From positions 1 through 38,904 of the forward strand of contig PNOB01000001.1 of the NCBI GenBank assembly GCA_013824585.1: a DNA stretch of 38,904 nucleotides. Reading direction: 5' to 3'. Shown here piece by piece: positions 22,208 through 37,155 of the stretch. Origin of the DNA: Desulfobacterium sp. (lineage in GTDB: Bacteria; Desulfobacterota; Desulfobacteria; Desulfobacterales; SURF-7). The first letter of the stretch is position 1. Each line of letters starts with the position of its first letter. The translations under genes and the position numbers were made by a program. The notes beneath the pieces were generated by a model. That model had not been told where the DNA came from and made no database searches. It worked only from the letters and a program-made list of their open reading frames with translations.

Positions 22208-22618
22208 ATGAGCTATGTCTGTAACTTGTTTGGTGAACTATCGAACATTTCCATGGAAGATTTTAACAAACTCAAGGATCGTTTCGCACGACATATGCAT
22301 CTTGATGTCTTTGAACATAAAGAAGACAATATTCTGGTAATTGACGCTGGTTTCAACAGCAGAAAAAAAGTCAGTTGGGTTGAAAAATTTGTTTATCATT
22401 ACATTGCAGATTCTATCCCGCTTGGCCGATTTGAAAAATTGTATTTCAAGGAAGGATATACTTTTTCCTGTGTTTTTTTTGGACACAAACAATTTGAAAT
22501 TGTTCGTTACTCTACACCAGAACAACCTGCCTGGTGGCAGGGGGAATCAACAGATTATATCAATACTTTAAAAAACAGGATCATGGATCTTTTGCGAAAA
22601 GGAGTAGTTTTGGAATAA
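22208..22618 (+). CDS. hypothetical protein (136 aa)
   Basis: ATG-initiated ORF and first gene of the plus-strand block. No signal peptide and no recognised motif. Confidence 0.45.
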   Translation: MSYVCNLFGELSNISMEDFNKLKDRFARHMHLDVFEHKEDNILVIDAGFNSRKKVSWVEKFVYHYIADSIPLGRFEKLYFKEGYTFSCVFFGHKQFEIVRYSTPEQPAWWQGESTDYINTLKNRIMDLLRKGVVLE

Positions 22619-22689
22619 CCAACCGAAATTATTATTATCATTACAATCCTTACTTAAAAACGTAAATCTTTTTTCAATATACTGTTCAT

Positions 22690-25600
22690 ATGAGCAATAC
22701 GAAAATAAAAAGCCTGCCATTTTTCTGGTTAGGAAAAATCTCACTGTGGATTGTGATGTTTTTTTTATTTCTCTGTTCCTCAAGTATCTATTTTCTCTTT
22801 ATTCTTCCTTCTGTTCTTACTTCTGAATCGGTTGAAGCCATTATTGAAAAAAGCTCAAAAAAATTGTTGAATATCTCTCTTGAGATCGATGACATCCAAT
22901 ATACTTGGCCAGGAGGATTGCAGATCGTGAGTTTTGAGATACGCGGTGACCCATTACATTATCCAGATCCCATACTCCATATTGATGAAATTGCATTCAA
23001 TATTTCTATTCCGGATGTATTTCCTGGAAAGATTGATTTTCATATTTTTGCAAAAGGAATTACTTTCCATTTTTTTCGGGATGCGGATGGAAAAACCAAT
23101 ATTGATTCCCTGATGACATCTCAAAATGCAATGGAAAAAACCTCCCGGGTTGACGCCAATGATAAAACAGTCAATGCCCCTTTTTCTCTTCCAATAGACC
23201 TGGGTGCAAGAATCGAATTAAGAAACATTGTCATTTCAGCCAAAGATCAGATTACGGATAAAAAGGTGCTTATTGAAAATGGAATGTTCCTCCTGGATAG
23301 TCCATCACTGCATTCCCGGGAAACCAATCTGAAACTATTTGTGGATGTTGCATTGAACGATAAAAAGCTGCCTCCAGTCGATCTGATGCTCAGGGTTTCG
23401 AATATACTGGATCCGGAAACAGCTTCTGTTTTGCCTGAAAAAATGGATGTCTCTTTCAGTGGAAAACTTCCGGGAAGTACAGTATCTGCTGATGGCACTC
23501 TATCCGGTAAAGGAATAGAAAGCGTTGTAGATGTTGATCTGGACGAGATTCATGAAATACTTTTACCTTTTTTACCGCCCCATATTGCGAATTCGAAGAT
23601 CAGCGGTTCTCTCCATATGTCAACCGTGTTGAAGATGAATTCCAAAAAGGATCTCTTTTTTGATTCCTCCGTGCAACTGGATGGCATCTCCTTGTCCGGA
23701 CCAATGATTCAGAATAGAACGATCTCAGGGTTTCAAGCCCGCCTTTCCAATAATGGAAACATTAATCTATCCATCAAGCAACTGAATATCTCCTCCGGAA
23801 AACTAAACCTGCTTCACAAGAGTGAGCTTTCCTATCATGGCACATTGAAGTTATTCGATCAGCCGGTCCAGGATTCTTTTATATCACTTGATACGGTGTT
23901 CATTGACATTGGTGAACTTCTGACGATTGGTAAACCATTTTTACCGCCCAACTTTCCCATAGATTTCGGGAGAGATGATCAATCCCCTGTTTTGCATATC
24001 AATGGTGTTGCCCTGAAAGGAGATTTTTTATCTGGTGCTTGTATCGGCACGGTTGAAAAATTAAATCTGGCTGTTCCCTATATTGAAATCAGGAACAGAG
24101 ACCTGAAAATAGTTGTCAATAACACTCATTTTGATCTTTACCAGTTCAGTACAGACCTCAACCGTTTTTTTCCGACTCATATTCTGTTTTCGAGTTCATC
24201 AGGAATAGATACGGTTTTCATCGATACAAAAGAAAAAATTGATTTGGAAACCATTTCCATTCCGAAATTTCAATTTCAGATCAAAGATATCCAAAAAAAT
24301 CCCAATTCATTGTTTGGCTATACGGCAACACTTTCCGGAGAACAACGCTTCGAAATTCAGAAAATAAAGATGTCTTCCACGGGAGAGATTGCCGGATTCA
24401 GTCAGACATTGGATGCTTCATGCAAGCTGCTTCCGGAAAAAAAAGCCGTGTTTGACATCAAGGGGGTTTCTATCGGAGCTTCCGACCTGGTCTTGAAAAA
24501 TGAAGCAATCGGAGCGTTTCAGACCAGTCTGGATATAAACAACTCGGATACTACAGTAGTAATCAGTAGTGTGAGTCCGCCTGAAATTGATATCCTGGGC
24601 ATGAAAAACCGGATCCGGGTTGGGGATTTTGCAGAACTCAATTCATTGGCGGATATCCGGAATCTGGCTCGGCAAGGAATGGAAACAAAGGGTGATCTGG
24701 CAATCAACCTGGGAAATCTGTTTCAAAAATTAACTAAAAAGCCAAAACAGGTCTCGAGCCTTAATGGAACCGTTTTTCTGAAATGGTCCCTTGATGGAAG
24801 AAGGCCTGAAGTTTCTGAAATAACCAATCTCCAACAGAGATCTGTAACCGATTTACAAAAGGATCTGGCCTTCATCAATCAGGTTCAGATAGAGCTGTCG
24901 CTGAATCAGATTCATACAAACCTGGTTTTCAATCCGGAATCAAGGATTCAGATAAAAAATTTTTCAGCGGAACCTCTTGTTCATTATATTTATGATGGAA
25001 AAAAGGGAAGGGGTAATTATGAAGGGGGTTTTACACTTCTCGATGTTGATTCCAATTGGATTCCAGTGGATCATAAACCTATCTCAGCAAAATTTTCTTT
25101 TTCCGGAACCCATGATGGCTTACAGAAAGTATCGATGATTCAGAATTTTGAAGTCGCATCACTGGGCTTCCATGAGTCAATCCGTTTCGCCCTTTCCGGA
25201 CTGGATCAATCCATCCTTCAGAACAGGGAGAAAAATCTGCCTTATTTCCTGAAAAAAACCGGTGGGTCATTTACCGGTCAAGTCTCCATGAATGACATGA
25301 CGGTAGTGAATCAGATCCAAAAACAAATGACAGCAGGTGGCGCTTTTTCAGCAGGATTGGATTTACTGATGGTTCCTGGATCAAAGCTTGGGGGGAAAAC
25401 CTGGATAAAACTAAACGATGTAATCCTGGAAAATGGACGACAATTTTCCATTCATGACCTTTCAGGCGATATTCATCTTGAAAAAGAGTATTTGCTTATG
25501 GATAACGATGCAAGGGATAAAAATCCAGACAACCTGGGATCCAGTTCAAATTTATCTGTCAATGTCATGAAACAGCCGGATTTCCAGGAAGAGATATTAC

Positions 25601-35693: not shown

Positions 35694-36221
35694 ATGAAAA
35701 TAAAATGTATTCTAGCACTGTTCGGTTTTCTTTTTATTTCAACTGCCGTTGCCGCCAATCAACCCCCATCAACCATATGGGTAGCTTCGGATAATGCAAA
35801 GCTCAAAGCCGATTGGAAATCATCTTCTGCTACCCTTGCCGAGGTTTCCAAAGGTACAGTATTATCCGTGCTTGCCTATCAGGAAAAATGGTATCAGGTA
35901 AAGCTGCCAAACGGAAAGACCGGATGGATCTATCGAGGAAAGGTCTCTGAAACCGAGGTTCAAAAAACGCAAGGGAAAGAAGAGGGCGGTTCGGTTGGAG
36001 GTCTTCTGGGGGACCTGTCCGGAAGCAATATCCGGGCTGATAATACAGATTCATCCAGAAGTATCAGAGGACTGTCTCCGGAGGCAACCGAATATGCAAA
36101 ACAGAATGGAACTCCTCAGGTTTACAGAAACGAACTGGATAAAGTGATTGATAGAAAAGTTTCGCCCACGGAGATTGATCAGTTTTTAAAACAAGGCAAA
36201 ATCGGAGAGTATCAGGAGTAA
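35694..36221 (+). CDS. secreted bacterial SH3 (SH3b/SH3_3) domain protein
   Basis: The signal peptide is MKIKCILALFGFLFISTAVAA. The SH3b pattern is V.(S)DNAKLKAD....ATLAEVSKGTVLSVLAYQEKWYQVKLPNGKTGWIYRGKV. A Gly/Ser linker and a roughly 60-aa charged tail follow. Confidence 0.7.
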   Translation: MKIKCILALFGFLFISTAVAANQPPSTIWVASDNAKLKADWKSSSATLAEVSKGTVLSVLAYQEKWYQVKLPNGKTGWIYRGKVSETEVQKTQGKEEGGSVGGLLGDLSGSNIRADNTDSSRSIRGLSPEATEYAKQNGTPQVYRNELDKVIDRKVSPTEIDQFLKQGKIGEYQE

Positions 36222-36228
36222 CCCAACC

Positions 36229-37155
36229 ATGATCAAAAAACAATTTACACATCCTGACGATGAAATCAATCGAACCCGGCGCAATCTGTTGAAGCTTGCC
36301 GGTCCGTTTACCCTTTTCATGGCTTGCCCGGCTTATGCTCTGGATCTTTTCAAAATGATCGATCCTGATGAGAAATCAAAGGACATTCAACGGGCAAAAA
36401 CCATATTCGAAGGGGTTGGAAGCATTGCAACCAGTGCGACGGACCTGGACTACAAGTCTGAATTCGCTATTGGAGAAAGCCTTGCACTGGAAGGGTTTCA
36501 GCGGTACGGATTGCCTTCAAAAAACCAGTTGGTGCAGAAATATGTCAATACCGTAGGCAATGCGGTCGTTCAGAATTCAATGCGGTCGGATATTCCATAT
36601 TATTTTGTCGTTGTGGAGAACAATATTTACAACGCTTTTGCCTGTCCCGGGGGGATAATTTTTGTCAGCTCAGCCCTTCTTAAGTCCATGAATAATGAGG
36701 CCGAGCTCGCGTGCGTTCTTGCTCATGAGGTTGCCCATGTCGGCCACAAACATGCCCTGCAGGCGATTAAGAGGGCAAAGTTTTTTGAAGGTGTCGGAAA
36801 GATTTCAACAGCAAATATGAAGGGTGAAGAAGGAAAAAAGTTCCAGAACATGATTGGTGATCTTCAGACGGTTTTGTTTGATCATGGTCTGGATCAGGAT
36901 ATGGAGTTTGAAGCAGATCTTTCCGGGATGTCATTTGCTTACCAGACCGGTTACAATCCGGAAGGATTTATAAGAGTACTGGATATGCTCAAACAGAAGG
37001 AAGCAACTGCGGTAAAAGAAGGATCCTGGTTTTCTACCCACCCTCCGTTGACCGATCGAATTCAGAAATGCAATGAAGGAATGGGGAAATATCCGGATGC
37101 TGCCTCGCTTGCAGTTGTCAGCAATCGTTTTGTTGAATACCGGAAATTGTTATAA
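36229..37155 (+). CDS. M48-family zinc metallopeptidase (YcaL/LoiP/BepA-like), exported
   Basis: NAFACPGGIIFVSSALL....E.ELACVLAHEVAHVGHKH contains HExxH at 36724-36738. Downstream is MEFEADLSGMSFAYQTGYNP, giving the third ligand Glu plus the EAD motif. The N-terminus RTRRNLLKLAGPFTLFMACPAYA is a signal peptide, possibly Tat or lipoprotein. Its start lies 7 nt after the SH3b gene stop. Confidence 0.85.
   Translation: MIKKQFTHPDDEINRTRRNLLKLAGPFTLFMACPAYALDLFKMIDPDEKSKDIQRAKTIFEGVGSIATSATDLDYKSEFAIGESLALEGFQRYGLPSKNQLVQKYVNTVGNAVVQNSMRSDIPYYFVVVENNIYNAFACPGGIIFVSSALLKSMNNEAELACVLAHEVAHVGHKHALQAIKRAKFFEGVGKISTANMKGEEGKKFQNMIGDLQTVLFDHGLDQDMEFEADLSGMSFAYQTGYNPEGFIRVLDMLKQKEATAVKEGSWFSTHPPLTDRIQKCNEGMGKYPDAASLAVVSNRFVEYRKLL

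Follow-up and report, generated by a model that had tools for sequence, protein, structure and literature searches.

A conserved five-gene locus of Desulfobacteria, predicted to be an envelope operon joining an AsmA-like protein and a YdbL-domain lipoprotein to two exported proteases

The assembly, sizing and regulation of AsmA-like bridges are an open question in outer-membrane biogenesis, and the only regulatory clue that we know of so far is the degradation of YdbL by DegP in Escherichia coli. In the YdbH-YnbE-YdbL system of that bacterium, the operon places a lipoprotein gene and one for a YdbL/DUF1318 domain after that of an inner-membrane-anchored AsmA-like groove protein (PMC11126948, PMC13464000). 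The YnbE strand is disordered until it augments YdbH (PMC11126948), YnbE shields YdbL from degradation by DegP, and bridge formation is controlled by the dosage of YdbL (PMC13464000). We analyzed a window of 38,904 nucleotides (nt), that is, the whole stretch at positions 1 to 38,904 of contig PNOB01000001.1 (GCA_013824585.1), from a Desulfobacterium-like metagenome-assembled genome (MAG). The subject of this report is a locus on its + strand that is predicted to place proteins of this kind next to two exported proteases.

The larger of the two proteases is a CHAT protein. A large helical-repeat scaffold before a C-terminal caspase-fold CHAT domain is also found in separase and in Csx29 (craspase), which cut a dedicated partner as specific endopeptidases. 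These enzymes are cytoplasmic or nuclear, and their activation comes from cohesin regulation or from RNA-guided Cas7-11. The earlier note on this stretch had called CHAT proteases best understood in cytoplasmic contexts; a periplasmic precedent already exists in the TPR-CHAT protein DdvA of Myxococcus, proposed to be a site-1 protease that cuts a flexible linker, a specific endoprotease acting on a nearby flexible segment (PMC11506125). The open reading frames (ORFs) of the locus, numbered here g1 to g6, are listed below with their lengths in amino acids (aa).

22690 to 26370, + strand: g2, 1226-aa protein, predicted inner-membrane-anchored and AsmA-like with a repeating beta-groove (family profile matches, AlphaFold2 (AF2)/Foldseek)
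26429 to 27007, + strand: g3, 192-aa lipoprotein with a YdbL/DUF1318 domain (Pfam, hhalign, AF2/Foldseek)
27007 to 35580, + strand: g4, 2857-aa propeller-TPR-CHAT giant, predicted to be exported (Pfam and NCBIfam, hydrophobicity)
35694 to 36221, + strand: g5, 175-aa SH3b protein, predicted to be secreted (SH3_3, SH3_4 and SH3_YKFC matches)
36229 to 37155, + strand: g6, 308-aa M48 zinc metalloprotease, predicted to be exported (Peptidase_M48, 1.1e-30)
22208 to 22618, + strand: g1, 136-aa cytoplasmic protein of unknown family, which adjoins the module and lies outside the conserved unit

From g1 to g6 the genes are separated by 71 nt, 58 nt, a 1-nt overlap (TAATG, between g3 and g4), 113 nt and 7 nt. 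The earlier note had read all six as one envelope module. The ORF coordinates confirm its genes, gaps, TAATG overlap and strand, and five of the genes (g2-g6) make up the conserved unit described below; g1 does not belong to it and was found in close relatives only. The export or anchor signals that it had assigned to every product but g1 were also recovered, as hydrophobic segments in g2 and g4, a lipobox in g3, a Sec-type signal in g5 and a twin-arginine translocation (Tat)-type signal in g6, and Pfam bore out the DUF1318, PD40, TPR, CHAT, SH3b and M48 assignments.

The locus differs from the E. coli system in three ways. It has no separate YnbE; its YdbL domain bears the lipid anchor and has an invariant N-terminal extension of 70 aa; and the genes for the CHAT giant, the SH3b protein and the M48 protease are added, none of which is present at the E. 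coli locus. Like DdvA, g4 combines a TPR solenoid with a CHAT domain bearing a His-Cys dyad, in the periplasm by prediction (PMC11506125). DdvA, however, has about 1000 aa, a cytoplasmic zinc anti-sigma domain and a cognate extracytoplasmic function (ECF) sigma factor, whereas g4 has 2857 aa, a propeller and no sigma partner, and the N-terminus of the g4 family is a signal peptide only. Unlike separase and Csx29, g4 is predicted to be exported and is tied to envelope genes.

Full-text literature searches returned no paper meaningfully linking CHAT with AsmA-like proteins or DUF1318, in agreement with the earlier note, which knew of no such link, and no gene-neighborhood study of AsmA-like proteins with proteases. 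Search listings name the family members only ‘hypothetical’, ‘DUF1318 domain-containing’ or ‘PD40 domain-containing’, and the g3 and g5 families are annotated there as DUF1318 or hypothetical only. All the domains are known and a periplasmic TPR-CHAT protein has a precedent; what is new is a putative AsmA-like/YdbL bridge system with attached proteases.

Gene order across genomes

We scanned one genome per GTDB species with a g2 profile, which gave 80 loci, and compared the proteins of the window with ORFs from all six frames of these loci. Metagenome contigs were covered by a second scan, anchored on g5. Both scans were pattern-seeded, and each census covered up to 80 loci. Wherever a locus of the g2-profile scan had room for the next gene, the order of the window was largely kept: g3 followed g2 in 70 of 72 loci, g4 followed g3 in 59 of 66, g5 followed g4 in 22 of 29 and g6 followed g5 in 11 of 12. 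The g5-anchored scan yielded g6 after g5 in every metagenome locus (54/54) and g4 before g5 in 25 of 35; the 15 loci with sufficient sequence ahead of g4 carried g3 and a g2 fragment there. The maximal g4 ORF overlapped the g3 stop codon in 48 of 60 loci.

The test of order covered 79 species-level genomes in which g2 is only 20-28% identical; identity of g3 across its family is 55-80%. All-against-all clustering revealed no conserved gene upstream of g2, and nothing was conserved beyond g6 in the g5-anchored loci. A scan for promoters and terminators in the window gave counts no higher than background. The gene order put forward in the earlier note is thus conserved well beyond close relatives while the flanks are not, and by these comparisons the conserved unit is the five genes g2-g6, a predicted envelope operon of sulfate-reducing Desulfobacteria whose order is kept across deep divergence.

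The same scans also produced partial loci. We recovered g2-g3 without g4 in 7 of 66 loci, including that of Desulfonema magnum (L016), and g3 looks no different there; g5-g6 occurred without g4 in 10 of 35 loci. At one locus (L166; GCA_942491875.1, 9579-17929) a lone g4 homologue has no g2-g3 upstream and no g5-g6 downstream, and at another (L165) a histidine kinase gene follows g4 in place of g5-g6. The module is therefore not indivisible and consists of three reusable units, g2-g3, g4 and g5-g6. The module-bearing loci L006 and L008 are labelled Desulfosudis oleivorans and Desulfocicer vacuolatum. The loci derive mostly from genomes labelled Desulfobacterales/Desulfobacteraceae, with some from Desulfatiglandales and single loci from one Desulfobulbaceae, one Deferrisomatales and one ‘NC10’ MAG; as they belong essentially to one phylum, the synteny could be partly a matter of inheritance.

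The partial loci, the histidine kinase in place of g5-g6 and the near-confinement to one phylum all favor an explanation in which the g2-g3 bridge, the g4 protease and the g5-g6 pair are independent envelope units, adjacent by descent in Desulfobacteria and without action on one another. We consider this explanation unlikely. Against it stand the order that is kept at such low g2 identity while no flanking gene is kept, the frequent overlap of the g3 stop with the g4 start, and the far-reaching g5-anchored loci, all of which carry g3 and a g2 fragment before g4.

The AsmA-like protein and the YdbL-domain lipoprotein

The g2 protein itself gave zero Pfam or NCBIfam matches, even at an E value of 10, and the AsmA label was therefore established via its family and fold. 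We collected the family by searching 1.84 billion cluster representatives exhaustively with HMMER, which returned 284 representative clusters, nearly all of them full-length at about 1200 aa. Of 40 family members scanned singly, 24 matched AsmA, 23 DUF748 and 21 YhdP; the matches were always N-terminal (within the first 200-600 residues), several exceeded the Pfam cut-off, and the best AsmA match among full-length homologues reached 4.8e-15. The match to AsmA-clan profiles thus holds for the g2 family, by transitivity, and not for the g2 sequence itself. Sequence searches of the PDB with two g2 family profiles returned nothing.

A hydrophobic segment spans aa 8-45 of g2 (transmembrane helix, nt 22711-22824, + strand; helix 2-34 in the AF2 model), and an N-terminal hydrophobic helix was present in all 57 of the 57 aligned family members. 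The AF2 model, built with 86 homologues at a mean predicted local distance difference test score (pLDDT) of 86.1, consists of this transmembrane helix followed by about 60 long beta strands. When the model was compared with the PDB by Foldseek, the top match was LPD-3 (9cap_A, probability 1.00), then ApoB100, and the Atg2 N-terminus was also listed. The modelled repeating beta-groove is thus of the kind found in LPD-3/BLTP1, Atg2 and VPS13. Identity to these eukaryotic bridge-like lipid-transfer proteins is 7%, with low template modelling (TM) scores, as expected of long flexible rods, and on the model the similarity to LPD-3 is one of fold class, not of orthology. The models and family profiles indicate that g2 is an inner-membrane-anchored AsmA-like protein of the repeating-beta-groove, bridge-like lipid-transfer class, which is a predicted function.

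The earlier note had called g2 AsmA/YdbH-like. The AsmA-like part of this label stands on the family profiles and the LPD-3 fold, and the YdbH part does not. BLASTP of g2 against E. coli YdbH was not significant, hhalign of the family profile gave 9% probability (against a single YdbH sequence, with limited sensitivity), and none of the 40 family members matched PF11739, the Pfam entry of the YdbH family. We dropped the YdbH label after these comparisons and kept ‘AsmA-like’. At 1226 aa, g2 is also longer than YdbH, which has 879 aa (L004), and it carries no YdbH-specific signal.

The assignment of g3 as YdbL-like was upheld by sequence profiles and by structure. Pfam DUF1318 matched with 33.6 bits (cut-off 27; E value 5.9e-8), and hhalign aligned g3 with E. 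coli YdbL at a probability of 87.6% (E 3.5e-6). The AF2 model, made with database homologues, had a pLDDT of 83.8, and its top PDB match was 28oj, the 2026 crystal structure of E. coli YdbL, with a TM score of 0.88 and a root-mean-square deviation of 1.6 A over the C-terminal domain. Two residues that are invariant in the family, R142 and N153, align with YdbL R61 and N72, which are among the residues touching the YnbE helix (PMC13464000); g3 thus keeps the fold and these pocket residues of YdbL. The lipobox reads IISG before Cys15 (nt 26471-26473), and a lipobox ending in GC followed by TLA was seen in essentially all g3 homologues. Taken together, the model and profiles point to g3 being a conserved lipoprotein with a YdbL-fold C-terminal domain.

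The layout of g3 comprises the anchor, a nearly invariant N-terminal segment (aa 15-59) and the C-terminal YdbL/DUF1318 domain (aa ~88-192). Just past the lipid anchor, aa 14-26 (AKVDVEVLSERT) are disordered in the monomer model; a long helix comes next and then the YdbL domain. This order of anchor, disordered segment, helix and YdbL domain mirrors that of YnbE (anchor, strand, helix) followed by YdbL. We counted the disorder of aa 14-26 in favor of a YnbE-like role because the YnbE strand behaves likewise before it augments YdbH. Conservation peaks at the N-terminus in g3 and over the C-terminal ~200 aa in g2, a pattern that a contact of the YdbH-C-terminus/YnbE type would predict (PMC11126948). 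The 58-nt gap between g2 and g3 holds no ORF, and hence no separate YnbE gene. A fusion of YnbE to the N-terminus of g3 was considered and is not demonstrable by sequence; we infer the idea from the order of the elements.

The CHAT giant and the SH3b-M48 pair

The features within g4 are as follows.

27154 to 27249, + strand: hydrophobic signal core, aa 50-81, ending in VLA before GE (Kyte-Doolittle scan; relatives)
27304 to 27936, + strand: PD40/TolB-like beta-propeller repeats, aa ~100-310 (PD40, DPPIV_N, TIGR02800)
34774 to 35571, + strand: CHAT domain, aa 2590-2855 (Pfam CHAT, 5.2e-58)
27017 to 27161, + strand: palindromic insertion of about 145 nt, missing from L001, L005 and L007

An N-terminal signal, a TolB/tricorn-like propeller, a TPR solenoid of about 2000 aa and a C-terminal CHAT domain make up the architecture of g4. 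Pfam returned PD40 at 2.2e-12, DPPIV_N, many TPR families and CHAT (PF12770), the last over the full profile length at 197 bits against a cut-off of 24. Tricorn_N and Tricorn_2nd matched in a relative that is 80% identical. The TolB model TIGR02800 matched the propeller blades only (4.5e-22); at 78.6 bits against an equivalog cut-off of 343, g4 falls far short of a full TolB. When a profile of the CHAT region was compared with solved structures, the matches were marginal: Csx29 at E 0.014 and 8rot_B, a 991-aa CHAT-domain protein that we take to be DdvA, at E 0.56.

The His/Cys dyad reported in the earlier note is intact. Checked codon by codon, it comprises His2725 (ASHG, nt 35179-35181) and Cys2770 (SACQ, nt 35314-35316), and the His was conserved in 78 of 78 homologues and the Cys in 77 of 78. 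We conclude that g4 is a predicted protease with an intact catalytic dyad. The Kyte-Doolittle scan located one hydrophobic segment, near the N-terminus, and none after it, and 67 of 74 relatives have a signal-like N-terminus, in line with the export proposed for g4. Where the N-termini of relatives were listed, the signal is short, with the same core straight after MKH, and a few are lipobox-like; we read these short signals as probably Sec-type. Because of the single N-terminal hydrophobic segment and the signal-like N-termini of the homologues, the whole propeller-TPR-CHAT body of g4 is predicted to be periplasmic.

The earlier note had described the N-terminus of g4 as a signal-anchor. Its export signal stands; the long anchor form does not, being the product of the insertion at 27017-27161, which is specific to this genome. 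The insertion lies in frame past codon 3 of g4 and is missing from the three closest relatives (L001, L005 and L007). Perfect 16-nt inverted repeats (TGAGCCAATTTCAAAA) form its termini, with another of 13 nt nested inside; its RNA fold has -55.8 kcal/mol (z -6.4), and there is no second copy in the window. Rfam gave zero matches in the window as a whole and none for the insertion, which looks like a miniature inverted-repeat transposable element (MITE) or an element of the repetitive extragenic palindromic (REP) type. It puts 49 basic residues before the signal core and a strong hairpin at the site of g3/g4 coupling. As the insertion has no counterpart in close relatives, the long basic N-terminus is genome-specific.

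The size and predicted export of g4, together with its translational coupling to g3, would also suit an explanation in which g4 is cargo. The first role linked to AsmA-like TamB was in the assembly of outer-membrane proteins, and on this explanation g2-g3 would be a TamB-like assembly or translocation path that brings g4 to the outer membrane or surface, rather than a bridge regulated by it. We regard this as very unlikely. The conserved unit has no Omp85/TamA-like partner, Pfam and NCBIfam found no beta-barrel, autotransporter or other recognized secretion domain in g4, the g2 model resembles lipid-transfer proteins, and some genomes retain g2-g3 without g4.

CHAT proteases are common in conflict systems, and g4 might accordingly belong to a periplasmic sensing or defense system, detecting an invader or envelope damage, in the way proposed for DdvA, and responding by proteolysis. 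DdvA is again a precedent, as a periplasmic TPR-CHAT protein tied to phage defense (PMC11506125). Several results oppose this explanation, which we hold to be highly improbable. PADLOC matched only a generic TPR model, on g4; a cytoplasmic anti-sigma domain would not fit into the short N-termini of the listed g4 relatives; the surroundings hold no conserved gene for a sigma factor or an effector; a mobile-element context is absent; and the distribution is like that of a lineage core trait. We rejected the defense reading on the PADLOC result and the gene context. A DdvA-like anti-sigma reading was likewise rejected, there being no N-terminal room in the g4 family and no sigma factor among the neighbors.

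Some observations on g4 homologues are recorded here. The lone homologue at L166 is 44-59% identical over most regions, with lower values in the propeller and mid-2 segments; a frameshift affects its N-terminus, and the gene after it belongs to the Uma2 family. In at least 10 related loci, g4 is split into 2-4 consecutive ORFs with the catalytic part intact (L002 (5757-11498), L031, L047, L052, L053, L064, L065, L067, L070, L124 and L133), which may reflect genuine splits, gene decay or frameshifts introduced during assembly. Used as a homology query, the middle region of g4 retrieved 22 proteins only, mostly shorter than the giant.

Downstream of the giant, g5 matched SH3b families (SH3_3, SH3_4 and SH3_YKFC) at about 7e-8 and has a Sec-type N-terminus. 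The family alignment gave a common layout of signal peptide, SH3b domain, Gly-rich linker and a tail that contains SRSIRGLSPE and ends in GKIGEY. The next gene, g6, encodes HEVAH at nt 36724-36738, and HExxH was found in 55 of 55 homologues. Its N-terminus (36229-36350) carries a Tat-type signal (TRRNLLKLAG...AYA). Similar motifs occur in about 22 of 55 homologues (~40%), the others being Sec-like or lipobox-like, and the Tat-type signal suggests that these family members are exported folded, possibly metal-loaded.

The closest solved structures to g6 were the Geobacter M48 peptidase 3c37 (7e-26) and BepA (1e-15). BepA is the nearest characterized relative and has in common with g6 the M48 fold, the HExxH motif and export. 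In contrast to BepA, g6 lacks the C-terminal TPR domain and has an SH3b partner gene that is obligate across the g5-anchored loci. With 88.7 bits against an equivalog cut-off of 570, and over the M48 domain only, g6 falls far short of an assignment as BepA.

The SH3b-M48 pair also occurs without the giant in unrelated neighborhoods (L093, L102, L103, L108, L111, L112, L116, L139, L144 and L156). The g5-g6 pair is thus separable, and its range is wider than that of the full module. In three of these loci (L139, L144 and L156), the pair is followed by an ORF of 436-480 aa whose N-terminal sequence is similar.

Possible proteolytic control of the bridge, and neighboring genes

A short motif, S-[VIM]-R-x-[VLIM], is shared by g3 (SVRGV, 26579-26593) and g5 (SIRGL, 36060-36074). 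It was present in 76 of 77 g3 homologues and in all 92 of 92 g5 homologues, and in g2, g4 and g6 was no more frequent than chance predicts (0.026 per 190 aa). In g3 the motif lies in a lower-confidence linker after helix 30-51 of the AF2 model, and in g5 between the Gly-rich linker and the conserved tail. The shared motif could be a common protease cleavage or docking site, and it supplies the only candidate sites for cleavage by g4.

We propose that g2-g6 may form one operon that encodes a YdbH/YnbE/YdbL-type bridge together with its proteolytic control in the periplasm, a reading to which we give about an even chance of being right. In this proposal, g2 and g3 would build a lipid-transfer bridge from the inner to the outer membrane, and g3 would combine the YdbL domain, within a single chain, with the lipid anchor and the strand-forming segment that come from YnbE in E. 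coli. Co-translated with g3, g4 would dock on or near the bridge through its propeller and TPR solenoid and would cleave a co-encoded periplasmic partner, thereby controlling assembly or turnover of the bridge. The best candidates for its substrate would be g3 and g5, which share the motif, in the form S-[VI]-R-x-[VL], in flexible regions, and g5-g6 would be a separable quality-control protease unit, probably tethered to peptidoglycan. Proteolytic control of the bridge is reasonable because both the degradation of YdbL by DegP and the proposed action of DdvA provide precedents.

Several points weigh against the proposed bridge with proteolytic control. Besides the partial loci, the lone g4 homologue and the concentration in one phylum described above, g2 is not demonstrably of the YdbH type in the hhalign comparison. 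When the g3 profile was compared with YnbE by hhalign, the alignment was confined to the signal peptide and lipobox, with no YnbE-like sequence beyond them. An outer-membrane location of g3 may be assumed solely on the +2 rule of E. coli, and the motif common to g3 and g5 was spotted post hoc.

A stronger version of the proposal makes the exported CHAT protease a dedicated regulator of the bridge: g4 would dock on the bridge, cut g3 and g5 at the shared motif and so turn bridge assembly or outer-membrane lipid flow on or off, and the M48 protease would clear the products. We judge this version distinctly unlikely. In the more general form, the operon would couple two exported proteases to an AsmA-like bridge and a lipoprotein with a YdbL domain, making it a natural system for the study of proteolytic control of lipid transport, and the linkage of g2-g6 hints that outer-membrane lipid supply is controlled by proteolysis. 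The giant would also join the small set of periplasmic CHAT proteases, as the largest in this comparison, and would extend caspase-fold enzymes to envelope homeostasis.

Upstream of the conserved unit, g1 gave no Pfam, NCBIfam or PADLOC match and has no export signal. Its homologues are confined to the loci of close relatives (L001-L003 and L005-L007), and the divergent upstream genes, like g1, were limited to relatives whose g2 is about 50% identical or more. A response regulator gene downstream (g7) was seen only in one close relative in the g5-anchored metagenome scan. Both g1 and g7 were rejected as members of the module, as they were found in close relatives only.

Further upstream, the - strand ORF at 15794-17242 encodes a 482-aa CDP-alcohol phosphatidyltransferase, a phospholipid-synthesis enzyme, 5.4 kb from the predicted lipid-bridge gene g2. 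This proximity is probably a coincidence, because the gene is syntenic only in the close relatives L001, L006 and L007. Two more - strand ORFs (17387-19684 and 19840-20262) encode proteins of 765 and 140 aa with no Pfam match, which are kept only in close relatives; they adjoin the gene of a 463-aa TPR protein (20365-21756) that is divergent from g1.

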